A stretch of 64,000 nt of DNA from a bacterium (GTDB lineage: Bacteria; Patescibacteriota; Microgenomatia; UBA1406; GWC2-37-13), in NCBI GenBank assembly GCA_037138475.1, contig JBAXII010000008.1, forward strand, positions 8 to 64,007, in the 5' to 3' direction. The notes under the pieces were generated by a model that saw nothing but the letters and a program-made list of their open reading frames with translations, made no database searches and was not told the DNA's origin. The translations under genes were made by a program, and so were the position numbers. Below are positions 22,375 to 60,481 of the stretch, piece by piece; position 1 is the stretch's first letter, and each line of letters opens with the position of its first letter.

Positions 22375-22449
22375 ACGTCACATTATACCAGTCTATGAAT
22401 GAAAGCTGTTTTGTCTGGCAAATAATTATATTATTCAACCTGATAACCT

Positions 22450-23782: not shown

Positions 23783-23807
23783 GGATCCCCTCGTTCGAGG
23801 GGATGAC
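23783..23807 (-). repeat. REP-like hairpin element, copy B (ggatcccctcgttcgaggggatgac), inverted relative to copy A
   Basis: 9-bp stem atcccctcg/cgaggggat. Same GTCAT/GGATCC frame in the opposite orientation, 23 nt from copy A. Confidence 0.8.
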
Positions 23808-28101: not shown

Positions 28102-28126
28102 GTCATCCCCGCGTACGCGGGGATCC
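28102..28126 (+). repeat. REP-like hairpin element, copy C (gtcatccccgcgtacgcggggatcc)
   Basis: 9-bp stem atccccgcg/cgcggggat, located in the divergent intergenic region. Confidence 0.8.
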
Positions 28127-28210: not shown

Positions 28211-28831
28211 ATGTGGTCATCTATGTCGGCACTAAAACAAATCAAGCTGCTCGCATTCCTCCTCCTGGTTTTGGCAGCGGGATATGGCTGCTACACGCTA
28301 TACCAGTCGACTGTACCTGCGTCTCGTTTCAGCGAGAAGCCCACCCCCGATGCAGTACTCAAAAGCGTGAGATCCCTCGCACGCCTCGAGACGGTCACCT
28401 ATACGGTAGAAAAAATCATTGACATATCCTCCACTGCCCCACAAGGTGCCATAAAAGACTTCCTCTTTGGGGACAAGCTCCTCCTGATCGCCACCGGTGA
28501 TGTGGTCGCGGGCATCGATCTAGAGCGTATAAACCAAAGCGATATCGTGGTATCAGGTGATCAAGTCTCAGTCAGACTCCCTCCTGCTGAGATATTTAGC
28601 GTGGGGCTCAATGAGCCACAGACACGAGTGTACGATCGCAAAACTGGTATCTTGAGTACGCCCCAAACTGACCTCGAGTCCGAGGCACGCAAACGTGCTA
28701 TCGTGCAGATCCGTGAATCAGCGTGTAACGGAGGAGTTTTGAAAAAGGCGACCGACCATGCAGTGACCCAGATCACGAGACTGATACCAAATATCTCCCT
28801 CACCGTCACTGAGCCAACCATCTGCAAGTGA
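28211..28831 (+). CDS. DUF4230-like membrane-anchored protein
   Basis: N-terminal TM helix. Pattern VLKSVRSLARLETVTYTVEKIID ... LLLIATGDVVAGIDLERI resembles DUF4230. Confidence 0.5.
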   Translation: MWSSMSALKQIKLLAFLLLVLAAGYGCYTLYQSTVPASRFSEKPTPDAVLKSVRSLARLETVTYTVEKIIDISSTAPQGAIKDFLFGDKLLLIATGDVVAGIDLERINQSDIVVSGDQVSVRLPPAEIFSVGLNEPQTRVYDRKTGILSTPQTDLESEARKRAIVQIRESACNGGVLKKATDHAVTQITRLIPNISLTVTEPTICK

Positions 28832-35332: not shown

Positions 35333-35357
35333 GGATCCTCGCGTTCGCGAGGATGAC
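35333..35357 (-). repeat. REP-like hairpin element, copy D (ggatcctcgcgttcgcgaggatgac)
   Basis: 9-bp stem atcctcgcg/cgcgaggat, located between convergent gene ends. Confidence 0.8.
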
Positions 35358-35410: not shown

Positions 35411-35983
35411 TCAATACCAAAACATCCTCTTGAGTCTGGTGGTGAGTGAAGGGTCATCGGCACGGCGTTGACGGACGATCTTGTCGCCGATTTTGCGCAG
35501 CTGGATGTGCGCCTTCCAGAGGATATAGCTCGCCAGCTCAGCAAGCCAACGAGTTCCTGTCAAGGGACTCGTCTTGAGGTCTTCGATGATCTGCTCGTCA
35601 GTCAGCAAGGGTACTTTTACATCATATACACTTGGGAAAGGAGCTGCCGAAGGCGCTGTCTTGAGTCCTGCAGCCGCAGCGTCTGCGGGGATCTTTGGGT
35701 CGATATTTTTGATCTTTATGCGCTTTTTTTCACCTGATTTTTCGGATTCTTTAGAGTCTTCGGCACTCGCCTCCTCTTCGGGCACATCCTCTACCTCACC
35801 TGCCTGCTCTGGTGCGAGCCTGATGGGTGCCGACTCTTTGCCATGTGACGTGACGCTTAGTGGCTGACTCACCACAGGCGGTACTTGATCATCGGGTGTG
35901 TATTGGAGAGTAGGACTCACTGCAACTTGATCGTCAGCGAGTGTATTCTCAGGAAGGAGGTGATCTATAGGAGTATGGGACAT
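35411..35983 (-). CDS. Hypothetical protein (190 aa): acidic/Pro-rich N-terminal half, conserved-looking C-terminal helix
   Basis: ORF 41 nt downstream of the 487-aa gene on the same strand. C-terminus PLTGTRWLAELASYILWKAHIQLRKIG. Confidence 0.45.
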   Translation of the reverse strand: MSHTPIDHLLPENTLADDQVAVSPTLQYTPDDQVPPVVSQPLSVTSHGKESAPIRLAPEQAGEVEDVPEEEASAEDSKESEKSGEKKRIKIKNIDPKIPADAAAAGLKTAPSAAPFPSVYDVKVPLLTDEQIIEDLKTSPLTGTRWLAELASYILWKAHIQLRKIGDKIVRQRRADDPSLTTRLKRMFWY

Positions 35984-36024
35984 ACAAAAAGTATATCAAT
36001 TCGCATCTCGATAAGAAGGGCATC

Positions 36025-37488
36025 TCAACTTTGGTGACCCTGATGCTCCTTTGCGATAATATTTGCGGTGCAGTGCATGCAGATGTTGCAGGGGCCTACT
36101 GAGGCGGTTCTTTTACACATTACACACTCGTTTCTCTTGTCAAAGCTATAATCCACCGTCACATATTTTCTTAGTTGTGAAACCCAAATAGATGTTTTTT
36201 TGTTGGACTCTGAGCGAACGTTACCAAATGCGGCCCCGGCGAGCAACCCAAATGCACCATATACCGATCCCCCTGCTTGTGAAACTGCATTCTGTAGGTA
36301 TGCTGAGGGACACTGGGTGCTTTCCACAAGCGGTTGACCAAATTGTCCAATTTGGTGAAAATAGGCCAGTGCGCTACGCTGTGCAAGGGTCATCGAGGTG
36401 GATAGATTCGCTGTTTGCCTCTGGATAAATGCCGTTTCTGATTGGTCGTATGCATCTAGAGTGGTGAAGTCGCCACTTCTCATGGTTTTTGCCAGTTGGA
36501 CACCATACCCGAATAACTTGTTTTTGAGCATGTCTGCCTCAGATGTAAATTTGTTGAGGCTGGCCGAGTCAGTAAACTTAAGATCTTTGTATTCATAGAG
36601 CAGTTCTGCGTACCGATTCAAATCATCTACTCTACGCCTGTACAGCTCAGTTTTAAACTGCCGAGAGAGTTCTTGCTCTGCGGGAGAGATTTGAAATAGC
36701 TTTGCCCAATACGTATCGCCCTCTTGTTTTTTTAGATGGAATGGCTTTGTTAGCAGATCCTCTGTAGATAGACTATCGATAGATTGGATATCTGGTCCAA
36801 CTCCTCCCTGAGATTCAAGGATTTTTTTGAGGTACTCCTTGCTTGCATCATTAAATCCATACTTTTCTGCATATGAGATGATTTTTTGGGTAATCTGTCG
36901 ATTGCCACCAGCATCCACATAGCCAGGCTCAAAAAGGAATGCGAGACCGTAGCTCATCTGTTGCTCCCCAAAATTCAACTTTGCCGGTGAAAATACCAGG
37001 TGGGATCCTGTTGGGTCCGAGTGAATTGACTCGATTAGGTTGATAATGCTGTTTAGTTCACCGCGCAGTCTCAAGTCGGTAGGGTTTTGAGCTAGTGACT
37101 TCTCAGCAAGCTCACGAATATCCATGCCACCTATCACAACGCGTCCATCTTTGGTCATGTGCCCTGTGAGCTCAGTGATTCTACTGCGCGCGCCATGCTC
37201 GTCTACTGCGGTAAGCTCTTGGTCTATCGCATACGACCTGATTTGCTCTCTGCTTTGGAGCCGGTGTTGTTGGATTGCTCTAATATCTGCCCACGCAGGA
37301 AATACCTCTGAGGCCTTTTTTCCTGCTCCTTCTACAGATAAATGTTCCTCTCTGTGATGACTTGAATCAAATACAGTACCCCCAATTCCACTGTTTTGCC
37401 TCCCTATCTCATCTGCTATTTCTTTGGAGTCCCAGTTTATGGTGGGCTCGGTTTGAGCAGGTGTGCGAAGGGATTCAGCGACAAACAT
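36025..37488 (-). CDS. Hypothetical protein (487 aa) with a C-terminal CxxC...CxxC zinc-ribbon-like tail
   Basis: Long ORF of normal composition. C-terminus NECVMCKRTASVGPCNICMHC. Preceded by a cobalamin-riboswitch-like leader. Confidence 0.6.
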   Translation of the reverse strand: MFVAESLRTPAQTEPTINWDSKEIADEIGRQNSGIGGTVFDSSHHREEHLSVEGAGKKASEVFPAWADIRAIQQHRLQSREQIRSYAIDQELTAVDEHGARSRITELTGHMTKDGRVVIGGMDIRELAEKSLAQNPTDLRLRGELNSIINLIESIHSDPTGSHLVFSPAKLNFGEQQMSYGLAFLFEPGYVDAGGNRQITQKIISYAEKYGFNDASKEYLKKILESQGGVGPDIQSIDSLSTEDLLTKPFHLKKQEGDTYWAKLFQISPAEQELSRQFKTELYRRRVDDLNRYAELLYEYKDLKFTDSASLNKFTSEADMLKNKLFGYGVQLAKTMRSGDFTTLDAYDQSETAFIQRQTANLSTSMTLAQRSALAYFHQIGQFGQPLVESTQCPSAYLQNAVSQAGGSVYGAFGLLAGAAFGNVRSESNKKTSIWVSQLRKYVTVDYSFDKRNECVMCKRTASVGPCNICMHCTANIIAKEHQGHQS

Positions 37489-37612
37489 ATCTGGGTGCCC
37501 TGCGACGGGGCGGGAGGCTTCACACTGTAGACCCGGCTTATTCCACCCAAACGGCGGACATCACGGTAGCGGCACTGCTGGGGAGTCTCACCCCATTCCT
37601 TCAGTGGAAAGC
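37489..37612 (-). promoter_or_regulatory. Candidate cobalamin (B12) riboswitch: aptamer ~37520-37609, expression platform 37489-37519
   Basis: The minus-strand RNA is UUCCACUGAAGGAAUGGGGUGAGACUCCCCAGCAGUGCCGCUACCGUGAUGUCCGCCGUUUGGGUGGAAUAAGCCGGGUCUACAGUGUGA. It carries the GGUGAGAnUCC hairpin, the GCAGnGCCGCUACnGUGA core, and an AAGCCGG B12-box-like segment. CCACUG/CAGUG can close P1. Confidence 0.55.
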
Positions 37613-37632
37613 AATAAGTAATAACAAATCAA

Positions 37633-37690
37633 CAATCTGCAATCTGCAATCTGCAATCTGCAATCTGCAATCTGCAATCTGCAATCTGCA
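37633..37690. repeat. Perfect heptamer tandem array (CAATCTG)x8 plus CA
   Basis: Read directly from the sequence: 58 nt with no interruption. Confidence 0.95.
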
Positions 37691-37691
37691 A

Positions 37692-37718
37692 ATAATATCA
37701 ATACAAATTTGAATTCAA
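37692..37718 (-). promoter_or_regulatory. Promoter-like TTGAAT-N15-TATTAT on the minus strand, overlapping the palindrome
   Basis: The -10 complement ataata is at 37692-37697 and the -35 complement attcaa at 37713-37718. This would drive the riboswitch leader. The spacer is short at 15 nt. Confidence 0.25.
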
Positions 37719-37730
37719 ATTTGTATTGAT
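37697..37730. repeat. Perfect 34-nt palindrome atcaatacaaatttgaa|ttcaaatttgtattgat
   Basis: The two halves are exact reverse complements, centred on GAATTC at 37711-37716. Confidence 0.95.
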
Positions 37731-37740
37731 TGCACATTGG
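37701..37740 (+). repeat. 40-nt direct repeat, copy 1 (atacaaatttgaattcaaatttgtattgattgcacattgg)
   Basis: 34/40 identical to 37853-37892. Confidence 0.8.
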
Positions 37741-37821
37741 GATTTTCTTACACATGTCAACTTACTAGTCATGCTCGTGAACACGAGCATCCAAAGGCAT
37801 CAGAAAACTACTTGTCCCATT

Positions 37822-37846
37822 GGATCCACGCTTTCGCGCGGATGAC
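37822..37846 (-). repeat. REP-like hairpin element, copy E (ggatccacgctttcgcgcggatgac), imperfect stem
   Basis: Same GTCAT/GGATCC frame, with one stem mismatch. It lies between the two 40-nt direct repeats. Confidence 0.7.
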
Positions 37847-37852
37847 ACATAG

Positions 37853-37892
37853 ACACAAATTTGAATTTAAATTTGCACTATTTGCACATTGG
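37853..37892 (+). repeat. 40-nt direct repeat, copy 2 (acacaaatttgaatttaaatttgcactatttgcacattgg)
   Basis: 34/40 identical to 37701-37740. A further ttgcacat motif occurs at about 37903-37910. Confidence 0.8.
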
Positions 37893-37916
37893 ACACTGCA
37901 AATTGCACATTTCTTC

Positions 37917-38453
37917 TCAGGTTATTTTTTCAATCTGCGCGTACTTACGCGACAAAGTGAAAAAAAGATCTGATAATCGATTTAGGTATTTTATCATGAG
38001 AAGGTCGTTTTGGTTGGTTTTTGATTCTGCATACTTAGTCTTCTCGCGCACGTATCTGACGACGCGCCGCTCTGCAGACCTCACTATCGTGCGTGCGATA
38101 TGCAGACGTGTCGTCGCCTCGCTGCCTTGGGGCAAGATGAAGCGCTTCAGAGGAGGCAAGGCTGCTGTTGTGGTATCAATTTGCTTTTCAAACTGGGTGA
38201 TTTTTGCCTCGTATTTCTTCGTATCAAGGAGGGCTCCTGCCAAGTAGCCCATGATCTCATAAAGATCGTGCTGGATCTGACTGAGCATATCGCGAACTTT
38301 CTCATCCTCTACCTGCTCTCGCGCCCAGCCGACAAATGAAGTTGCCTCATCGAGAGCGCCATTTGCCTCAATAATCAACTCAGACTTTGGGATGCGTTTC
38401 CCTGTCAAGACACCCGTCTCTCCTAAGTCGCCCGTTTTTGTATATATTTTCAT
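37917..38453 (-). CDS. pduO: PduO-type ATP:cob(I)alamin adenosyltransferase
   Basis: MKIYTKTGDLGETGVL..RIPKSELIIEANGALDEA is the family N-terminus. The ORF-track extension (38454-38546) is read-through of a repeat, so the start was trimmed to ATG 38453. Confidence 0.85.
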   Translation of the reverse strand: MKIYTKTGDLGETGVLTGKRIPKSELIIEANGALDEATSFVGWAREQVEDEKVRDMLSQIQHDLYEIMGYLAGALLDTKKYEAKITQFEKQIDTTTAALPPLKRFILPQGSEATTRLHIARTIVRSAERRVVRYVREKTKYAESKTNQNDLLMIKYLNRLSDLFFTLSRKYAQIEKIT

Positions 38454-38495
38454 CTGTGAATATTGTTTAGGTAAACTTTTAGTCTTGCTCTCACT

Positions 38496-38520
38496 GGACC
38501 CTCGCGTTCGCGAGGATGAC
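38496..38520 (-). repeat. REP-like hairpin element, copy F (ggaccctcgcgttcgcgaggatgac)
   Basis: Nearly identical to copy D. Lies between the nrdJ stop and the pduO start. Confidence 0.8.
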
Positions 38521-38601
38521 TCGAAGGTTTTGGAACATTCATGCATTTAATTTGTGTTGTTCTTTGTTATACGCTATAGATTATCAGCTATTCGCTCTCT
38601 T

Positions 38602-41082
38602 TTAACATGCGCTGTATCCACAGGTATAACATTTTTTACATCCTTCCTCATGTACGAGCGCTGCATCTCCACACTTGGGACACAGGTCAAAGGCTGCCTT
38701 CTTTTTTGGGAGGGTGAGGGTGGCTGTTGGCTTGCTAAATGCATTTGCCTCAGCGGCTTGGACAGCGGCGATAGCCGATGCGGCATCCGCTACCACTTTG
38801 GTGTCCGTCGCTGCTTGGTCTGTACCGTTTGCATGACCATTCCCGCTTGATACTTGATCAGACTTGTGCAAACTGTAATGCATTCCCAACACCTTGGCGA
38901 TTGCATCAGGGAGTGATTTGACGGTGTTTTTGCCAAATCCCAGTGTTCTGCTACCCCCAATACCTTCAAGCTCTTCAATGATACGTCTAACTCTATCAGC
39001 TGGAGTAAGTTGTGTATTAAATCTGAGCGACATGCTGATGGTGCGTCCAAGCGCCTCTGCCATCGCATATACATCCGCTCCGGGCTTGCCAACGTTGATA
39101 AAAACCTCAAGCGGCTCTCCGAGTGCATTGGTATTCACCGTGATGTATGCCTTACCGACGGGGGTATCTATGCGGTAAGTTGATCCATTTGCAACCATCG
39201 GTCGGGGGGTACTATGCGGCATTACTGGCGCCACAGGTGTTGCAGGAGTGTTTGCCCCTTCTACTTTTGAGACCGAATTTGCACTGGTGTCACCGCGCTC
39301 GAGCACTGCTTCTCTCGATCCGTCGCGGAACATAGTGATTCCTTTGAGACCCTTTTTATATGACTGCATGTATAGTCGCTTTACATCTTCGACCGTAAAT
39401 GAGTTTGGGGTATTTACTGTCTTTGAAATCGATGCGTCTACGTATTTTTGAATGGTTGCCTGCACATCCACATGCTCTTCAGGAGTGAGATCTGCAGAGG
39501 ATACAAACCAGGCTGGACGCACGGTGACTTCTTCACCCTTTTCATTTTTGATGGTCAGCTCATCCTTGTGCGCGGTGTAGTACTTATCCCAGAGATGGTG
39601 ACGAATGACGTGGGTACCGATGCGGTCACGGCGGGTGAACTCAAATTCAAACACAGGTTCTATGCCTGAGGTGGTGTTTGCAAGGAGGCTGGTAGAGCCT
39701 GTTGGCGCTTGCATCGTCAATATGGAGTTTCTGATGCCTTGTTTCTTGATCTTTGAGAGAATTTTTTCAGGGAGGTATTTTACATATTCTCCTGCGGGAT
39801 ACAGTTTTTTGTCAAACTTGCCAAATGCTCCCTTGGTCTTTGCAATATCTGCTGATGAGTCATATGCACAGTCTCTGATGACCTTCATGATTTTCTCAAT
39901 CACCACGAGTGACTCGGGTGAGCCATAGCGCATGTGCATCTTGATCAGCGCATCTCCCAGACCCATGGTACCTATTCCGATTCGGCGTTCACCCTCGAGC
40001 TGAGTTTTTCGAATACCCTCAAAGATATAGGGATCCATGTCAACTACGTTGTCTTGGAATCGTACTGCAAGTCTGGAGATTTTTTCCAGCTCTTTATAGT
40101 CAAATACACCAGGGCCATGGACTCCATCGCCCTTTACGAGGGCTGAGAGGTTGATAGAGCCGAGGTTACACACTCCCCAGGGTGGAAGACCTTCTTCGCC
40201 GCATGGGTTTACACAGTTGATACGGTTCCAATAGTAGTTGTTGTGCAACTTATTGTATCGCTCCATAAATACGAGGCCAGGCTCAGCTGAGCGCCATGCG
40301 GCCTGACAAATCAAGTCCCACATCTCGCGCGCTTTGACTACTTTTTGCACGACGACCTTTTTTCCTCTCTTTTTCCACACTTCCATGTCTCCATCCCACA
40401 ACAAGTCGTATTCTGGATCTTTGGTGTCGGGGAATACGAGTGCCCAGTCGCCATCGTTTTCGACCGCTTCCATAAATGTGTCTGAGACACATACGGAGAG
40501 ATTTGCGCCAAGGATCTTTGAGAGATCTTGCTTCACGGTGATAAACTCATAGATATCTGGATGCCAGTCCCAGAGCATGAGCATGAGTGCGCCACGGCGC
40601 GTCCCACCCTGTTGGATGATGTCTCTCGTTGCAAGTGAGAAAAGCCCCGCCCAGTTGATGGGACCTGAGGAGGTGCCGTTTACTTTGAGCACTCTGTTGC
40701 CGCGTGGGCGAAGTGTAGAGAGGTTGATGCCTACTCCTCCTCCATGTGCCATGATCTCTACCATATTTTTCAGCGTGTCGATGATGCCGCCGCGTGAATC
40801 TTTTGGTGAGGGTATGACAAAACAGTTGTAGTAGGTCACATCATATCCAGTGCCAGCTCCCGCGAGGATACGTCCGCCCGGCACATATTTGAAATCAGTC
40901 ATGATGTCAAAAAATTCGGCTTGGTACTTTTTTCGGAGCGCGGGAGTCTTCTCTTTTGCAGCAACTGCCTTTGCAATGCGTGCCCATGCCTCAGGCATGG
41001 TCTTTTCAACGAGCTCACCTTGTTTACCTTTCATTGCATATCGATCAAGAAAGACTTTTTCTGAGACGCCGGTGAGTTTCAT
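38602..41082 (-). CDS. nrdJ: Class II (adenosylcobalamin-dependent) ribonucleotide reductase
   Basis: 826 aa. NCFVIPSPKDSRGGI, NPCGEEGLPPWGVCNLGSINL, and a C-terminal zinc ribbon CPKCGDAALVHEEGCKKCYTCG. Confidence 0.9.
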   Translation of the reverse strand: MKLTGVSEKVFLDRYAMKGKQGELVEKTMPEAWARIAKAVAAKEKTPALRKKYQAEFFDIMTDFKYVPGGRILAGAGTGYDVTYYNCFVIPSPKDSRGGIIDTLKNMVEIMAHGGGVGINLSTLRPRGNRVLKVNGTSSGPINWAGLFSLATRDIIQQGGTRRGALMLMLWDWHPDIYEFITVKQDLSKILGANLSVCVSDTFMEAVENDGDWALVFPDTKDPEYDLLWDGDMEVWKKRGKKVVVQKVVKAREMWDLICQAAWRSAEPGLVFMERYNKLHNNYYWNRINCVNPCGEEGLPPWGVCNLGSINLSALVKGDGVHGPGVFDYKELEKISRLAVRFQDNVVDMDPYIFEGIRKTQLEGERRIGIGTMGLGDALIKMHMRYGSPESLVVIEKIMKVIRDCAYDSSADIAKTKGAFGKFDKKLYPAGEYVKYLPEKILSKIKKQGIRNSILTMQAPTGSTSLLANTTSGIEPVFEFEFTRRDRIGTHVIRHHLWDKYYTAHKDELTIKNEKGEEVTVRPAWFVSSADLTPEEHVDVQATIQKYVDASISKTVNTPNSFTVEDVKRLYMQSYKKGLKGITMFRDGSREAVLERGDTSANSVSKVEGANTPATPVAPVMPHSTPRPMVANGSTYRIDTPVGKAYITVNTNALGEPLEVFINVGKPGADVYAMAEALGRTISMSLRFNTQLTPADRVRRIIEELEGIGGSRTLGFGKNTVKSLPDAIAKVLGMHYSLHKSDQVSSGNGHANGTDQAATDTKVVADAASAIAAVQAAEANAFSKPTATLTLPKKKAAFDLCPKCGDAALVHEEGCKKCYTCGYSAC

Positions 41083-41128
41083 AGGTGATATAGGGAAATG
41101 AAGTTATAAATAATGATGGGGAACGAGA

Positions 41129-41572
41129 TTATAATCTTTTAATTTCTTTTTCCAACTGCTCAATGTCTTCGAATCGTTTGAATACGCTTGCAAATCTGAT
41201 ATAGGCAACCTTGTCGATCTCTTTGAGCTGTGCTGCCACGAGCTCTCCTATCTTGAGCGATGACACTTCGTTTGATCCTGTCGAGCCAATTTTAGTGGTG
41301 ACATAGCTCACGATGGTATCAATCTCTTCAAAGGTCACCCGTGTTTTCCCTACTGCTTTTACTATCCCACTTTTGAGTTTCGCTGCATCGTATTGCTCTC
41401 GTCTCCCATCTCTCTTGATCACCAGGATGGGAACCTCTTCAATACGCTCATACGTGGTAAAGCGCTTTTCACACTTCGCACACGAGCGCCTGCGCCTGAC
41501 CGTCGATCCATCCTCGCTGATACGAGTCTCAATGACATCGGTGTCTGGACATTTACAAAAAATACATTTCAT
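41129..41572 (-). CDS. nrdR: Transcriptional repressor NrdR
   Basis: MKCIFCKCPDTDVIETR zinc ribbon plus ATP-cone. Start chosen at the family-typical M-K-C (ATG 41572) rather than ORF-track 41641. Confidence 0.9.
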   Translation of the reverse strand: MKCIFCKCPDTDVIETRISEDGSTVRRRRSCAKCEKRFTTYERIEEVPILVIKRDGRREQYDAAKLKSGIVKAVGKTRVTFEEIDTIVSYVTTKIGSTGSNEVSSLKIGELVAAQLKEIDKVAYIRFASVFKRFEDIEQLEKEIKRL

Positions 41573-41884
41573 TTTGTCTAGTGTATGGATGTCATCGTAG
41601 ACACTAGCGATGGGGTTTGCAACAGTATCTTTATATATCAATATATATCACTCTTCAGTTTTGGTGGGGGCCTGTATGGCTTGTAGCATTTGAAAGGCCG
41701 TGTCTACAGAAGGTATACACATCTGTGGTTTTAGCATGTTGCTGCAGGCAAGAGAACTTGGAAAGAATCTCTGGACTCTGTTTTACTAAAAAAAATATAG
41801 GTTATATGAAAATGCAAAAAGTGATGTTTTGCTTGGTAAAAAGCCTTAAACAAAAAAACGTGGGAGAGAGGTGTCTCAGAGAGA

Positions 41885-44609: not shown

Positions 44610-44811
44610 AAATCAATGCAGGTGAGGTAGGAACAAGGCTGTTTTTGGGTGTTTTTTGAACATATCTAACGTGATGTGCCAACTAAAGTGCTCTAAATCT
44701 GTCACCTTCGGAGCGAAAACGCCCGATATACTATGTGAAAATAGTAATCGTTGGTTTATTGTACCAAGCAAGACCCTATTTGCAATGACACATCCTATGC
44801 GCACACAACAA

Positions 44812-45627
44812 ATGAAGGTGGTCGCCCACTCACAAATTGCACCTGGGATACGCGAAATCCGCCTGGATTGTGAGGAGAATTTTGTATTTCAGGCTGGTCA
44901 GTATGTACTCGTGCATATCGGCGGCACGGTTGACCCTACACTCAAAAAACCCTACCCTCGCGCCTATTCTATTGCCTCATTTGAGGGTGAAATCACCTCA
45001 GATGGATCTGTATCCGCGAATCAAATCACGCTCATATATAAAGATACGGGCGGAGTGGCTACTAGCTATCTTTCTCATTGTGTGGTGGGTGACATGGTGA
45101 CTATACAGGGTCCCGCGGGATACTACACCACTACACGACACAGTGATCAAAACCACGTGCCCCTCGTGTTTTGCGCTACAGGCACCGGCATCGCACCTAT
45201 CCACTGCATCCTCAAGTCACTCTCTATTTTAAATTCTCCATTTCCCATTGTTAATTCTCAATTATCAACTATCAATTATCAATTTCAGCTCCCTCCCACC
45301 ATACATCTCTTTTGGGGCCTGAGAACACTATCAGATTTGTATCTGGTCTCCTCGTTTGGGGAAATTGTTGAAAGTTTATTGCAAAAAGGAGTGCGCGTGG
45401 AGTGCTCGCTGTGTGTGTCTCAAGAAAAGGTAGCGGCGGGTACAACTTATGAACAATGGAATGTGTTTGGGTCGCGGGTACAACCTGTCCTAATTGAAAA
45501 AATCGGCACTAGTGCCAATACGTTGTTTAGTTTGTGTGGATCTGGAGAAATGGTCACACAAACTCGCCAACTGCTCCTCGCAAATGGGGTGAATCCAAAA
45601 CAGATCTTGTTTGAGCGATATTCATAG
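44812..45627 (+). CDS. Ferredoxin-NADP reductase-like FAD/NAD(P)-binding oxidoreductase
   Basis: RAYSIAS (RxYS), GGVATSYL, ATGTGIAP, LCGSGEMV. Start is ambiguous (ATG 44785, 44797 or 44812). Confidence 0.7.
   Translation: MKVVAHSQIAPGIREIRLDCEENFVFQAGQYVLVHIGGTVDPTLKKPYPRAYSIASFEGEITSDGSVSANQITLIYKDTGGVATSYLSHCVVGDMVTIQGPAGYYTTTRHSDQNHVPLVFCATGTGIAPIHCILKSLSILNSPFPIVNSQLSTINYQFQLPPTIHLFWGLRTLSDLYLVSSFGEIVESLLQKGVRVECSLCVSQEKVAAGTTYEQWNVFGSRVQPVLIEKIGTSANTLFSLCGSGEMVTQTRQLLLANGVNPKQILFERYS
45250..45284 (+). repeat. Heptamer array inside the CDS (gttaatt ctcaatt atcaact atcaatt atcaatt)
   Basis: Five phased 7-mers, consensus ATCAATT, translated in frame as ..VNSQLSTINYQF.. Confidence 0.8.
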
Positions 45628-45662: not shown

Positions 45663-45688
45663 GTCATCCCGGGCTTGACCCGGGATCC
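45663..45688 (+). repeat. REP-like hairpin element, copy G (gtcatcccgggcttgacccgggatcc)
   Basis: Same frame, with stem atcccggg/cccgggat and a 6-nt loop. Confidence 0.75.
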
Positions 45689-48413: not shown

Positions 48414-48422
48414 GGGAAGAAA

Positions 48423-48450
48423 ATGAATAATGAATAATGAATAATGAATA
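48423..48450. repeat. Heptamer tandem array (ATGAATA)x4 in the recA upstream region
   Basis: Read directly from the sequence. Begins 10 nt upstream of the recA ATG. Confidence 0.9.
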
Positions 48451-57198: not shown

Positions 57199-58017
57199 AT
57201 GGAACAACACGCGATCCCCCGTGATATTACCGGCTTTCAGTTCAAACTCATTGGTCCGATGACTTTGAGGCAGTTTATGTACCTCGTGGTCGCCGCTTTG
57301 TTCGGCTACCTTATGACTATGATCGTGGGGAGCATTGTCACTGCTTTTTATATAGACATCATATGTGGGCTTTTGGTCTTTGGTGTGGGGTTGGCGTTTG
57401 CATTTATACCCATAAACGACCGTCCACTCGACTACTTTCTCAAAAATCTCTATAAAAAGCTGGTAAACCCTACCCAGTTTATCTATCACAAGGAGAACCT
57501 GCCCCTCAGGGTGCTGGAGGGAATGTATTACGAACAAGATCCTCATGTCTTGTTGGCACATGTGGATAGTCGCGAAAAGCTGGCGGCATATATAGCTGCT
57601 AAAAATCCACCCCCACCTGTTGAAGTAAAAAAACCCCTCCCACTTCCTCTACCTATGAGGGGTGCAAAGCCTGTAGCGAAGGTGGGGACAGTGGCCCAAG
57701 CGGCACCACAGACTACAGCCACAGCGACACCTGCGCCTACGGGTGAGCACCCCTGGATCAGTGGAGTGGTGCAAAACCGCAAACTTATTCCGCTTCCTGG
57801 AGTCCTCATCTATATCAAGGATGTGGCGACTAAAAAGAGCCTGCGCATACTCAAAACCAATCCACATGGAGTATTTGCGTCGTTTCATCCGCTACCGCCT
57901 GGTGAATATCTCATTGAGGTGACAGACACGGGCAAGAGCTACCAGTTTGATTCTAAGACGGTGACCATCGATCCAGCCAATCACCAATTTACCTTCACCT
58001 CACGAGAGATGATGTGA
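57199..58017 (+). CDS. PrgI-like (VirB3-analogous) membrane protein with a C-terminal carboxypeptidase-regulatory-like beta domain
   Basis: IPRDITGFQFKLIGPMTLRQFMYLVVAALFGYL is the PrgI-family N-terminus. Pro-rich linker. C-terminus GVVQN..PLPGVLIYIKD...TNPHGVFASF. Confidence 0.6.
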   Translation: MEQHAIPRDITGFQFKLIGPMTLRQFMYLVVAALFGYLMTMIVGSIVTAFYIDIICGLLVFGVGLAFAFIPINDRPLDYFLKNLYKKLVNPTQFIYHKENLPLRVLEGMYYEQDPHVLLAHVDSREKLAAYIAAKNPPPPVEVKKPLPLPLPMRGAKPVAKVGTVAQAAPQTTATATPAPTGEHPWISGVVQNRKLIPLPGVLIYIKDVATKKSLRILKTNPHGVFASFHPLPPGEYLIEVTDTGKSYQFDSKTVTIDPANHQFTFTSREMM

Positions 58018-58082
58018 TTTGTGATTTCAAAATGTCGACTTGGGTTGATAGTTTGATCAGTTTTGTATAGGATATAGCACTT

Positions 58083-58730
58083 ATGCCCGCACCAAAACCA
58101 ACCAATCCAAACAAAGGTTGGACACAAAAATTTATCGAGCTTGAGGATGTGGTGGATGACATCGTCCTTTTGCATGGCAATGGAGCAGCGTGCGTCGTCG
58201 AAGTGGGCGCGGTGAACTTTTACCTTTTGTCTTCAGAGGAGCAAAGCTCTATCATCTACGCATATAGCAACCTGCTCAACTCTCTCTCGTTTCCGATTCA
58301 AATCGTTATATTGTCAAAGAAAATGGACGTGTCCAACTATCTCGAGTATCTCGAAAACAAGGTGACAACGCAGCCCCAACAACTTTTAAAAACATATTTG
58401 CAGCACTATCAAGACTACATAAAGACGATTATCAAAAAAAACACCGTGCTTGAAAAGCGGTTCTTTTTTGTCATTCCATTTAACCCTCTAGAAATGGGAG
58501 CGTCGGGGATGGGCAAACTACAGAAGGAGTATGTGGTGACTCGCGCAAAGACATCTCTGTATCCAAAGCGCGACCACCTCCTGCGCTTGCTCGCAAAGAT
58601 GGGTCTGCGTGCCACTGTCCTACACCAACAAGAGGTGGTGGAGCTCTACTACAATATTTACAACCCCTCCTCCACAGGTAGACAGCTTGCGCCGATCCCA
58701 ACCTATACTAATGTTGTCATGACCCAATAA
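58083..58730 (+). CDS. T4SS-associated protein resembling the non-ATPase N-terminal domain of VirB4/TraC-type proteins
   Basis: VLLHGNGAACVVEVGAVNFYLLSSEEQSSIIYAYSNLLNSLSFPIQIVILSKKMD follows the pattern seen at VirB4-family N-termini. Tightly coupled to the ATPase gene. Confidence 0.5.
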   Translation: MPAPKPTNPNKGWTQKFIELEDVVDDIVLLHGNGAACVVEVGAVNFYLLSSEEQSSIIYAYSNLLNSLSFPIQIVILSKKMDVSNYLEYLENKVTTQPQQLLKTYLQHYQDYIKTIIKKNTVLEKRFFFVIPFNPLEMGASGMGKLQKEYVVTRAKTSLYPKRDHLLRLLAKMGLRATVLHQQEVVELYYNIYNPSSTGRQLAPIPTYTNVVMTQ

Positions 58731-58732
58731 CT

Positions 58733-60481
58733 ATGTTTTCACTCTTTCCCCAAAAAAAATCCGCTCCGGTGGTACCCGAGAGTCAGTCTGCAGGCGCAGT
58801 CATGGCGCAGGGCCAGGTGTCTGTCAAAGATTTGATTGCGCCTTCGTTTATAGAAACAGATTACTCGCACATCAAGATTGATTCGCGATATTATCGTACG
58901 TTGTATGTGGTGGGGTATCCTCGCTATGTGTCATCAAACTGGTTGTACAACCTCATCACGTTTGATCACCCGCTCTTTGTGTCCATGTTCATTTACCCGA
59001 CCGAAAGTAAAGAGATCCTTGATGATTTGAAGAAAAAAATATCTCAGATGCAGGCAACTATCGAGATTGATCTCCATGCAGGAAAAGCGGTGGATCCTAT
59101 GGTACAGGTGCAGCTTGATGACGCTCTAGTGCTCCAATCAGAGCTTGCAAAGGGGTCTGAGCGATTCTTCCAGTTTGGATTGTATGTCACCATACCTGCA
59201 GACACCAAGGAGGAGCTTGATAACGTAACCAAAGAGGTTGACTCCTCGCTCGCATCACTACTCATCGTCGCAAAGTCTGCCATACTCGAACAAGATGAGG
59301 GATTTAGGTCGACACTCCCCATGTTTTCTGACAAGCTCAAGGTCTGGCGAAATATGGACACCACCTCGCTCGCGATGACGTTTCCATTTTCAACGGCGTC
59401 GCTTACGCGCAATGAGGGGATACTCTATGGCATCAATCAACACGATGGAAGTCTCATCATCTTTGATCGGTTTACACTAGAAAATGCAAACTCCGTCATA
59501 TTGGGTAAATCCGGAGGAGGGAAAAGCTTCTTGGTCAAACTAGAGGCGCTTCGGCTCCTCATGATAGGGGTCGAAGTGATCATTCTTGATCCAGAAAATG
59601 AGTATGCGGCCGCATGTAAGAGTTTGGGTGGGGAGTTTGTGGAGTTTTCGGCCACGTCGAGCTATAAAATAAATCCATTTGAACTACCTCAAGAGTCTGT
59701 GGAGCCTGATGATCTGCAAAATAAGATTTTGGATCTTCACAGCCTCCTCAAGATTATGATGGGCGAGTTGACTCCTGCCCAAGACGCCATGCTTGATAGG
59801 GCGCTCGTGAGCGTATATCAAAATAGAGGAATCACCCCAGACCCCGCAACGTTTAAAAACCCCGCACCATACATAGAGGATTTGTATAAGGTGTTTTTGG
59901 GTATGGAGACTACTGAGGCGGCAGAGATGGCTGATCGGCTGGAAAAATATGTGAAGGGTTCGGCTTCTGGAATATTTAACCAACAGTCAAGCTTTGATAT
60001 TAAAAATCCATTTACGGTGTTTGGTATCCGTGATCTAGAAGAAAATCTGCGTCCAATCGCCATGTATATCGTACTCGATTTTATATGGAACAGAATCAAG
60101 AAAGAAAAAAAGCGAAGGGTCCTCATCGTAGACGAGGCGTGGTACCTGATCAAACACAAAGACTCGGCTGCATACCTGCGCAACTTCGCAAAGCGATCGC
60201 GCAAATATGGCATGGGTATGACCACCATCACTCAGGATGTGGAGGACTTCCTCTCCACAGAGGATGGGAAGGCCATCATCACCAACTCATCGCTACAGAT
60301 CATATTAAAGCAATCAACAGCTGCGGTGGATAAAATCGCCGAGACCTTTTATCTCACTGGTGGAGAAAAACACTTCCTCCTTTCGGCTGGGGTGGGTGAA
60401 GGGCTCTTTTTTGCATCACAAAACCACGTAGGGTTCAGGGTGATCGCGAGCGACGAGGAGCGGCAGCTGATCAGCGCGTAA
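58733..60481 (+). CDS. virB4: VirB4/TraC-family type IV secretion ATPase
   Basis: Walker A GKSGGGKSF, Walker B RRVLIVDEAW, ITQD sensor-like motif, and an N-terminal YYRTLYVVGYPRYV..WL domain. Confidence 0.8.
   Translation: MFSLFPQKKSAPVVPESQSAGAVMAQGQVSVKDLIAPSFIETDYSHIKIDSRYYRTLYVVGYPRYVSSNWLYNLITFDHPLFVSMFIYPTESKEILDDLKKKISQMQATIEIDLHAGKAVDPMVQVQLDDALVLQSELAKGSERFFQFGLYVTIPADTKEELDNVTKEVDSSLASLLIVAKSAILEQDEGFRSTLPMFSDKLKVWRNMDTTSLAMTFPFSTASLTRNEGILYGINQHDGSLIIFDRFTLENANSVILGKSGGGKSFLVKLEALRLLMIGVEVIILDPENEYAAACKSLGGEFVEFSATSSYKINPFELPQESVEPDDLQNKILDLHSLLKIMMGELTPAQDAMLDRALVSVYQNRGITPDPATFKNPAPYIEDLYKVFLGMETTEAAEMADRLEKYVKGSASGIFNQQSSFDIKNPFTVFGIRDLEENLRPIAMYIVLDFIWNRIKKEKKRRVLIVDEAWYLIKHKDSAAYLRNFAKRSRKYGMGMTTITQDVEDFLSTEDGKAIITNSSLQIILKQSTAAVDKIAETFYLTGGEKHFLLSAGVGEGLFFASQNHVGFRVIASDEERQLISA

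Follow-up and report, generated by a model that had tools for sequence, protein, structure and literature searches.

The window analysed here, a stretch of 64,000 nucleotides (nt) from an ultra-small, Roizmanbacteria-like bacterium of the Candidate Phyla Radiation (CPR, or Patescibacteria), carries on its minus strand an RNA leader that, judged by comparison of homologous sequences, is almost certainly a genuine, divergent cobalamin-class riboswitch despite its sub-threshold score in Rfam searches. It very probably controls the two genes that follow it, called big and small here, which encode proteins of 487 and 190 residues. The RNA represents a new lineage, scoring below threshold, within a known riboswitch class, and the proteins encoded downstream lie outside the described families. 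The element and the two genes comprise the following features:

37497-37612, minus strand: whole riboswitch element including its 3′ hairpin, from the match to Rfam family RF01482 and the comparative fold
37517-37612, minus strand: aptamer with a Cbl-IIb-like layout, in which the P1/P3 stem (37612-37602 paired with 37527-37517) encloses a four-way junction
37580-37594, minus strand: P4/L4 hairpin GGGG-UGAGACU-CCCC, 100% paired, with three of five pairs covarying
37568-37576, minus strand: P5/L5 mini-hairpin AGU-GCC-GCU, with loop L5 UGCCG at 37574-37570, the predicted kissing-loop partner
37528-37566, minus strand: P6, made up of a proximal CCG/CGG helix, an extension hairpin (37558-37542) and the B12-box-like sequence AAGCCGGGUCUA (37539-37528)
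37497-37511, minus strand: P13/L13 hairpin GCCC-CGUCGCA-GGGC, 5 nt after P1 and 8 nt before the start codon
36025-37488, minus strand: big, an open reading frame (ORF) of 487 residues with its ATG at 37488
35411-35983, minus strand: small, an ORF of 190 residues that begins after a 41-nt gap

The initial annotation had described a cobalamin-aptamer-like segment at 37609-37520, and the sequence that it quoted is found on the minus strand. The element is present, P1 is longer than was proposed (true span 37612-37517), and it also includes another conserved hairpin, at 37511-37497. The gene coordinates given there, namely the ATG at 37488, the 487-codon ORF, the 41-nt gap and the 190-codon ORF, were all correct, as was the C-terminal CxxC..CxxCxxC tail of the first protein. 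At gathering thresholds, a search of Rfam returned only tRNAs, two of them in the window, and the same was true of 10 loci scanned. A permissive scan aligned the entire model of the adenosylcobalamin (AdoCbl) riboswitch family RF01482, a member of clan CL00101, to 37491-37626 on the minus strand at 42.4 bits, the gathering score being 50 (E=1.6e-6 in a search of 521 nt, 2e-4 for the whole 64 kb). This was the sole non-tRNA match in the window. The best-scoring family was RF01482, not RF00174 or RF01689 as had been proposed. Distant homologs matched RF01482 more weakly, with 31.1 bits for locus L008 and 29.1 bits for locus L046. The fold energy of the single window sequence was unremarkable (z=+0.59), so that one sequence alone proves nothing.

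We therefore relied on compensatory changes across homologous leaders, of which 11 distinct lineages were available (window with L001-4; L005; L006-8; L009-11; L012-14 with L035; L018; L020; L052; L045; L046; L047). From nine distinct full-length leaders, RNAalifold recovered P1, three hairpins, an inner 3-bp helix and the 3′ hairpin, with 12 of 33 consensus pairs retained through changes on both sides. For pair counting, the structure was written out from the Rfam alignment for the 11 leaders, with controls consisting of helix partners slid by one to three columns and of 500 column shuffles. Pairs were formed in 94.1% of cells, versus 42 to 57% in the slid controls, and 13 pairs had changed on both sides, versus 0 to 8; on none of the five measures did a shuffle, out of 500, do as well. 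At least one compensatory pair was present in every one of the five aptamer helices, and the four-way junction P3-P6 closed by P1 is thus supported by covariation. The aptamer of L005 is approximately 90% identical to that of the window although the protein encoded downstream is only 63% identical, and the aptamer of L048-50 is identical to that of the window. Little or no variation among the 11 leaders is seen in GCCGCUACCGUGA and AAGCCGGGUCUAC, which represent the J/P5-P6 strand of the GCCACUG type and the B12 box and align with the RF01482 consensus. Of the two lines of support to which the initial annotation had looked, conservation of the leader structure was found, with covariation, and a match at the gathering threshold was not.

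The sub-threshold score and the ordinary fold energy are what could be expected if the leader were a GC-rich structured spacer resembling a riboswitch by chance. That explanation is practically untenable: the match has an E value of 2e-4 even for the whole window, divergent homologs give independent, weaker matches, and the core motifs do not vary, in contrast to the divergent flanking spacer and downstream protein. The compensatory changes in all five aptamer helices effectively refute it. A scan of metagenomes with a pattern for the riboswitch core returned 24 loci, 2 of them genuine and the others chance matches within coding sequence.

The architecture of the aptamer points to a particular subclass. 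P1/P3 forms a continuous 11-bp stem interrupted by a single C.U or C.A mismatch, and 5 of the 11 P1 pairs have changed on both sides, for example from CCACUG/CAGUGUG to UUUCUG/CAGAAAA. P4 occurs as GGGG/CCCC, GAGG/CCUC, GGAG/CUCC, GCAG/CUGC or ACAG/CUGU, and L4 of several other lineages accommodates an inserted hairpin of 26 to 45 nt. The L5 sequence UGCCG is invariant in 11 of 11 leaders, with the closing pair of P5 covarying from A-U to U-A. The proximal helix of P6 covaries from CCG/CGG to CAG/CUG; its extension, a 6-bp hairpin, differs in sequence and length among leaders yet remains paired and is exceptional in L045, where it is AU-rich and reaches approximately 90 nt. The P2 arm and helices P7 to P11 are absent from the leaders. 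Under the nomenclature of PMC7367189 and PMC10327014, the UCCGCC/GGUGGA hairpin, in whose loop no complementarity to L13 was found, is the P6 extension and not P5. In Cbl-IIb riboswitches, which bind AdoCbl, the P2 arm is missing, J1/3 is short and either mismatched or paired, and P6 is extended by a short hairpin (PMC7367189). By analogy, the layout of the window element is that of Cbl-IIb, the AdoCbl-binding subclass, which agrees with RF01482 being the best-scoring member of the clan.

The window riboswitch shares with RF01482 an alignment over the full model including the P13 hairpin, the GGAA junction, a P4 loop of the UGAnAnU type and the P5/L5 mini-hairpin, as well as the missing P2 arm and P7-P11 helices and the short P6 hairpin. 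Its core GCCGCUACCGUGA resembles the consensus gCCACUGUgA, AAGCCGGGUCU resembles the consensus AAGUCAGGUCU, and its L13 reads CGnnGCA where the consensus is CGAGGCA. It departs from the norm of that family in its score (42.4 bits, and 29 to 31 in relatives, versus 50), in having UGCCG rather than UCCCG as L5, and, across its lineage, in the L4 insertions of many members and the long P6 extension of L045. It is also found in a CPR bacterium upstream of an ORF, whereas the RF01482 norm is the eut loci of Firmicutes.

The 3′ hairpin provides a candidate expression platform. P13 aligns with the 3′ hairpin of RF01482 (consensus loop CGAGGCA), and its stem is kept in the 11 leaders with one compensatory variant, GCCU/AGGC in L047. 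In the same set, L13 reads CG-NN-GCA and varies only at NN, and the spacer from P13 to the AUG is constant at 7 to 8 nt. The sequence 5′-UGC.CG-3′ of L5 can form five pairs with 5′-CG(nn)GCA-3′ of L13, leaving a 2-nt bulge exactly at the variable positions. The kissing loop between L5 and L13 is an established mechanism in btuB, env8 and metE, it is bulged in env8, and the family consensus of L5 is UCCCG (PMC10327014). The predicted 5-bp interaction in the window resembles the bulged one of env8 (PMC10327014). The overall arrangement, an aptamer followed by P13 beside the start site with no terminator, is also that of Escherichia coli btuB and env8HyCbl (Cbl-IIa). In contrast with btuB and env8, there is no Shine-Dalgarno (SD) sequence to sequester in the window, and the ligand is likely to be AdoCbl rather than hydroxocobalamin (HyCbl) or methylcobalamin (MeCbl).

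The leader contains no U-tract terminator, and control would therefore be translational. No SD motif was found upstream of 24 window genes, and TATAAT-like boxes often lie 10 to 25 nt before the ATG, in a pyrimidine-rich “CCT ATG” context (e.g., 22420-22449, 41083-41112 and 48414-48443). These features suggest that translation in this genome is mostly leaderless or uses short leaders, independently of SD sequences. A structured leader of approximately 135 nt is thus exceptional in this genome. The AGGG of P13 was entertained as an SD sequence and dropped, as the genome shows no sign of using such motifs. As there is no SD sequence to sequester, occlusion would have to work sterically or through the start region. 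Minimum free energy folds of five of six leaders have the aptamer and P13 formed and the start region free.

By analogy with the characterized systems, the riboswitch is probably an OFF switch. In the mechanism that we propose, AdoCbl, the product of PduO and the cofactor of NrdJ, would bind the aptamer when plentiful. L5 (UGCCG) would then kiss L13 (CG-nn-GCA), fixing P13 and the bulky aptamer in the ribosome landing zone; P13 docked 7 to 8 nt from the AUG would block access of the 30S subunit and shut off translation of big and small. The operon would thus be expressed only under B12 limitation. The converse, an ON switch or some other mode in which AdoCbl activates the operon and big and small serve to utilize B12, is distinctly unlikely. 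RF01482 stems from ethanolamine-utilization loci, where AdoCbl ultimately switches genes on, which speaks for this possibility. An activating corrinoid riboswitch has moreover been demonstrated (PMC10327014). However, P13 and the AUG are 7 to 8 nt apart, the unbound state offers no alternative helix that would hide the start codon, and the layout mirrors the repressing translational type of btuB and env8.

Conservation of the gene order indicates what the riboswitch controls. The initial annotation had suggested looking for B12 riboswitches in front of homologs, and the same riboswitch precedes every big homolog for which enough upstream sequence was available, in 11 distinct lineages. The small gene always lies 3′ of big, at a distance of 9 to 79 nt, and the distant members L045, L046 and L047 also have the riboswitch-big-small order. 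The conserved unit is thus a three-part module of riboswitch, big and small. Linkage to nrdJ and pduO, also proposed initially, holds in the Roizmanbacteria-like lineages and fails in L045. Since small follows big and is itself followed by a hairpin element, the two genes are likely to form a bicistronic operon ending at that element:

35334-35356, minus strand: hairpin element GTCATCC-stem-loop-GGATC, 54 nt past the small-gene stop codon

The N-terminal half of the Small protein is of low complexity, acidic and rich in Pro, whereas a C-terminal domain of approximately 70 residues is conserved. Small has 12 relatives, one of them in a Candidatus Roizmanbacteria metagenome-assembled genome (MAG), and no match in Pfam, NCBIfam, PADLOC, PHROGs, PDB or Foldseek. 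Among named relatives, the locus as a whole is closest to that of the Candidatus Roizmanbacteria MAG GCA_037130495.1. Two third-party-annotation (TPA) MAGs titled “uncultured Gammaproteobacteria bacterium,” L018 (CAZIUF010000028.1) and L020 (CAZUKL010000003.1), carry a Roizmanbacteria-type locus; their labels or binning look wrong.

We next consider the Big protein. It had no match in Pfam, NCBIfam, PADLOC, PHROGs or PDB sequences. Five representatives hit no family in PADLOC or PHROGs, and a tblastn search of 50,697 phage records was negative. A word-indexed search of 5.8 billion proteins found two relatives, as did one with a 16-sequence profile; an exhaustive HMMER profile search of 1.84 billion cluster representatives found 15 at E<1e-3, and a scan of GTDB genomes with back-translated peptides found nothing. 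Judged by its sequence, Big is soluble and belongs to a very rare family that has no name. Conservation is seen in an SPxK...YG...F motif, a pair of invariant tyrosines, one isolated Cys-Pro (C393) and a C-terminal cluster of four to six Cys, and the first 350 or so residues are nearly cysteine-free. The window protein ends in CxxCx8CxxCxxC followed by 14 residues (a Cys5 ribbon). The ratio of nonsynonymous to synonymous substitution rates (dN/dS) is 0.22 for big, and both genes are under purifying selection (range 0.13 to 0.27), which argues that they are real genes.

The initial annotation had proposed structure prediction for these proteins. AlphaFold2 with a 3-sequence alignment gave an unusable model (predicted local distance difference test [pLDDT], 44), and the 15-sequence alignment gave a usable core, with a predicted template-modeling (TM) score of 0.67 and pLDDT values of 75 to 93 for residues 60 to 390 or thereabouts. 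In this model, an alpha/beta domain precedes a helical bundle, after which come a Gly-rich linker of low confidence and small beta-hairpins. The structural comparison that followed yielded no significant match. A PAS-like subdomain (probability 0.84, TM score 0.45) was insignificant, as were scattered Foldseek matches to a relaxase/Rep (nuclease) fold with TM scores of approximately 0.1.

A role in B12 uptake, which the initial annotation had put forward among the candidate functions, is disfavored. No transmembrane segment, signal peptide or signal-like N terminus was detected in Big or Small, neither has a Pfam or NCBIfam match to the known B12 transporters such as BtuB, BtuFCD, ECF-CbrT, BtuM or the BacA type, and the best 19-residue Kyte-Doolittle windows reach 1.09 and 0.60, respectively. 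Soluble proteins without a signal are unlikely transporters; from their sequences, both are probably cytoplasmic.

The genomic neighborhood offers another indication of function. As initially annotated, nrdR, nrdJ and pduO lie upstream on the same strand, and their Pfam and NCBIfam scores confirm the assignments:

41129-41641, minus strand: nrdR, with two Pfam domains matched
38602-41082, minus strand: nrdJ, TIGR02504 with 561 bits (cutoff, 400)
37917-38453, minus strand: pduO, TIGR00636 with 154 bits (cutoff, 108)

TIGR02504 is the NCBIfam equivalog for the adenosylcobalamin-dependent ribonucleoside-diphosphate reductase. The minus-strand order from 5′ to 3′ is nrdR, nrdJ, pduO, a spacer of approximately 430 nt, big, the 41-nt gap and small. 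Because the presumed ligand of the sensor is both made by the neighboring PduO and needed as a cofactor by the neighboring NrdJ, the operon would represent a response to B12 limitation in an organism whose group is not known to synthesize B12. Scavenged corrinoids would be captured or processed in the cell and passed to PduO, then to NrdJ. In Big, the N-terminal body is variable; its other parts are a lone cysteine that is conserved, a Gly-rich linker of a flexible kind and a tail with a zinc ribbon. A biochemical role in intracellular corrinoid capture or processing, to which the regulatory logic and the gene neighborhood point, is a tentative proposal that we regard as somewhat doubtful. Considered as a whole, an AdoCbl-repressed translational switch that drives a B12-limitation response, with corrinoid handling as our leading guess for the role of its products, is the best explanation of the locus, and its chances of being right or wrong seem to us about even.

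Accessory proteins for B12 capture that are regulated by riboswitches include Bacteroides BtuG and BtuH, BtuM and CbrT, and processing chaperones include CblC/MMACHC. Like the capture accessories, big and small lie behind a cobalamin riboswitch and beside B12-dependent functions, and the conserved cysteine of Big could, like that of BtuM, serve as a cobalt ligand or in cobalt processing. Diversification at the strain level is likewise seen in Bacteroides B12 accessory proteins. Big and Small nevertheless resemble none of these capture and processing proteins in sequence or fold, and they lack membrane segments and any lipoprotein or signal sequence.

The same neighborhood would fit an operon for sparing or bypassing B12, i.e., proteins that, when lack of AdoCbl stalls NrdJ, provide or regulate an alternative route to deoxynucleotides, for instance by salvage or by processing nucleic acids with the zinc ribbon, or else arrest growth. 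The module adjoins NrdJ, the only visible B12 enzyme, and its regulator NrdR. Substitutes that need no B12, such as metE or nrd isozymes, are commonly under repression by cobalamin riboswitches, and zinc ribbons often bind nucleic acids. The tails of some family members, C-x2-C...Y-x-C, resemble the C-terminal tail of NrdJ: the relatives P0022, P0023 and P0025 end in CxxC...YxC like the window NrdJ, which ends in ...CKKCYTCGYSAC. However, the window Big protein differs from NrdJ in its CxxCx8CxxCxxC ending with 14 further residues, and the remainder is unrelated to ribonucleotide reductase (RNR). The proteins have no similarity to RNR, kinase or nuclease families, the nuclease/relaxase matches in Foldseek are insignificant, and hypervariability is unexpected in a metabolic enzyme. 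We therefore give this possibility little credence.

That hypervariability is the most unusual property of the locus. Between the window and four related loci, the level of identity of the big product is as follows:

L002: NrdJ 97%, PduO 100%, Small 96%, Big 94% identical
L048: NrdJ 98%, PduO 96%, Small 92%, Big 30% identical (502 residues)
L020: NrdJ outside the short locus, PduO 95%, Small 92%, Big with no detectable similarity (463 residues)
L052: NrdJ 95%, PduO 89%, Small 86%, Big with no detectable similarity (444 residues)

The Big proteins of L020 and L052 are 76% identical to each other and represent a second type, with no similarity to window Big by BLASTP. We examined the 463-residue L020 protein as a hidden family member using hhalign, phmmer and unfiltered hmmsearch, which retrieved only the zinc-ribbon tail; unfiltered hmmsearch against the family was also negative for L052 Big. 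What the two types share is architecture only, with a body free of Cys, a single lone Cys, a linker rich in Gly and a ribbon rich in Cys. Compared at the nucleotide level, the window and L020 cease to be similar at 37452, 36 nt inside the big ORF, and become so again precisely at the ATG of small (35983), and the riboswitch is essentially identical in front of all big versions. In the comparison of the window with L048, the synonymous sites of big are saturated (proportion of synonymous differences [pS], 0.78), whereas dS in the flanks is 0.38 to 0.52. Because of this saturation relative to the flanks, we conclude that the big alleles are old and have been exchanged by recombination, with the conserved riboswitch and small as flanks, rather than being the products of fast evolution in place. 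Between the window and L002, dS forms a mosaic (nrdR, 0.90; nrdJ, 0.42; pduO, 0.11; big, 0.11; small, 0.08), which indicates recent recombination across the 35411-41641 region. One 239-residue protein, P0020, consists of the C-terminal half of an L048-type Big fused to approximately 55 unrelated N-terminal residues; it is either a chimeric contig or a product of cassette recombination.

A simple-sequence tract directly 5′ of the riboswitch varies between these loci as well:

37633-37691, minus strand: perfect tandem repeat of the heptamer GCAGAUU (minus strand), 8.4 copies, detected by TRF

The window has 8.4 copies, L002-4 have 3, L020 has 1, L048 and L052 have 0, and L001 has an assembly N-gap there. 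The tract looks like a simple-sequence contingency tract in a promoter or 5′ leader.

Corrinoid handling sits uneasily with such cassette behavior. A cassette fits a protein with a variable partner, be it chemically diverse corrinoids, host molecules or phage. The riboswitch could be real and the operon a contingency locus for interaction with a host or phage, with Big a diversifying effector or specificity protein that is turned on when the epibiont lacks B12 and has to exploit a host or competitor, for example one exported without an N-terminal signal, and not an intracellular enzyme that handles B12. The extreme allelic diversity of big among nearly identical strains, with sharp break points and saturated dS compared with the flanks, favors such a locus, and so do the two apparently unrelated N-terminal bodies that have only the Cys-linker-ribbon tail in common, the heptamer of variable copy number just upstream, as in phase-variable loci, the PrgI/VirB4-type type IV secretion genes in the window and the extreme rarity and lineage restriction of the family. 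On the other hand, Big has no match in PADLOC or PHROGs, no phage relatives and no detectable secretion signal, dN/dS is below 0.3 and hence there is no overall positive selection, nothing links the locus to any host, and a tightly conserved AdoCbl sensor implies a role centered on B12. We consider the host- or phage-interaction locus, with Big as an exported effector, an unlikely explanation, albeit one to be taken seriously.

Several observations weigh against the explanation that we favor, the repressed switch with corrinoid-handling products. As regards the RNA, its score of 42.4 bits is below the gathering value, and both the ligand and the regulatory sign come from analogy alone, with activation having a precedent. 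The kissing loop predicted between L5 and L13 displays no covariation, as both partners are invariant, and the control on its duplex energy was uninformative because 40% of loop permutations score equally. As regards the proteins, Foldseek comparison of the Big model with PDB and BFVD returned nothing at E<0.01, and no similarity of Big to any B12 protein was found. Neither window protein has the B12-binding motif DxHxxG, which is absent from 21 of 22 Big proteins, and there was no Pfam match to the Rossmann-like B12-binding domain of the PF02310 type. The variability of Big is unexpected for a housekeeping chaperone of NrdJ and PduO, which are 95 to 98% conserved. Finally, as regards linkage, the upstream neighbor in L045 is a divergent gene and not pduO, and in L015-17 (JGI 3300045332/33/72) a 185-residue Small homolog (48% identical) directly follows a DUF4230 gene with no big, riboswitch or nrdJ nearby, i.e., small occurs alone elsewhere. 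The DUF4230 gene of the window (28211-28831) is approximately 7 kb from small.

The remaining features of the window concern the surroundings of the module. The longest pduO ORF (37917-38546, 209 residues) is probably too long at its 5′ end: the relatives begin with MKIYTK, which corresponds to position 38453 in the window (178 residues), and the surplus 5′ part overlaps one copy of the hairpin element. This element (TCATCC-stem-loop-stem-GGATC) occurs at 23784-23806, 28103-28125, 35334-35356, 37823-37845 and 45664-45687, with covarying stems, i.e., in five copies in the window versus 0.74 expected. The copies are placed just past genes, including after pduO (37823-37845) and after small, and versions of the element are present in the same spacer of L006, L009 and L012. 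It may be a terminator or repetitive extragenic palindromic (REP)-like element of this lineage. The spacer between pduO and the riboswitch (37697-37916) contains a direct duplication of approximately 40 nt, CCAATGTGCAAATA.TGCAAATTTAAATTCAAATTT, part of which is an AT-rich perfect palindrome (37697-37730). L002-4 (L002, 6999-7100) lack the approximately 170 nt that separate the two copies, as recombination between them predicts.

A flavoprotein of the ferredoxin-NADP-reductase type with FAD_binding_6 and NAD_binding_1 domains is encoded at 44656-45627 on the plus strand, a few kilobases from nrdJ-pduO, and also in L001 (2005-2799); that it feeds electrons to the reduction of cob(II)alamin before adenosylation is pure speculation. 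A type IV secretion or conjugation-like system is represented at 57199-60481 by a PrgI-family protein and a TraG/VirB4-type ATPase. Apart from the module and its neighbors, the window is ordinary chromosome, with genes for enolase, RecA, RNase Y, DnaN, PGI, an S1 protein, and DUF4230 and DUF5667 proteins, in addition to the PrgI/VirB4 type IV system.

In the open-access full-text literature that we searched, no paper paired cobalamin riboswitches with CPR or Patescibacteria, and the present Rfam thresholds miss this riboswitch lineage. The CPR is a huge, mostly uncultured group with minimal metabolism. Riboswitches are very reliable pointers to gene function, and a sensor of AdoCbl implies that the products matter when B12 is scarce. 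The locus represents a testable entry point, since its small RNA and its two soluble proteins are amenable to expression in vitro. In it, a metabolite sensor that is ultra-conserved is paired with a gene that is hypervariable and cassette-like, an association that may report on how strains compete for corrinoids or hosts. Should the proteins prove to have nothing to do with B12 chemistry, the locus would show that B12 status serves as a signal for another behavior.

The most far-reaching possibility, which is speculative and on balance improbable, is an unrecognized B12-starvation regulon of the CPR, bacteria that are not known to make B12 although they depend on an AdoCbl-dependent RNR. In it, an AdoCbl riboswitch would drive two soluble proteins, the large subunit being a modular, recombining cassette with a variable body for recognition, a reactive cysteine and a zinc-ribbon tail, which would capture or strip corrinoids for PduO and NrdJ. 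The allelic diversity would then mirror that of the corrinoids, which are possibly host derived or chemically diverse, or of the hosts exploited by each strain. Such a regulon would define a new class of proteins for B12 acquisition or piracy and would provide the first functional handle on cofactor scavenging in these ultra-small episymbionts.

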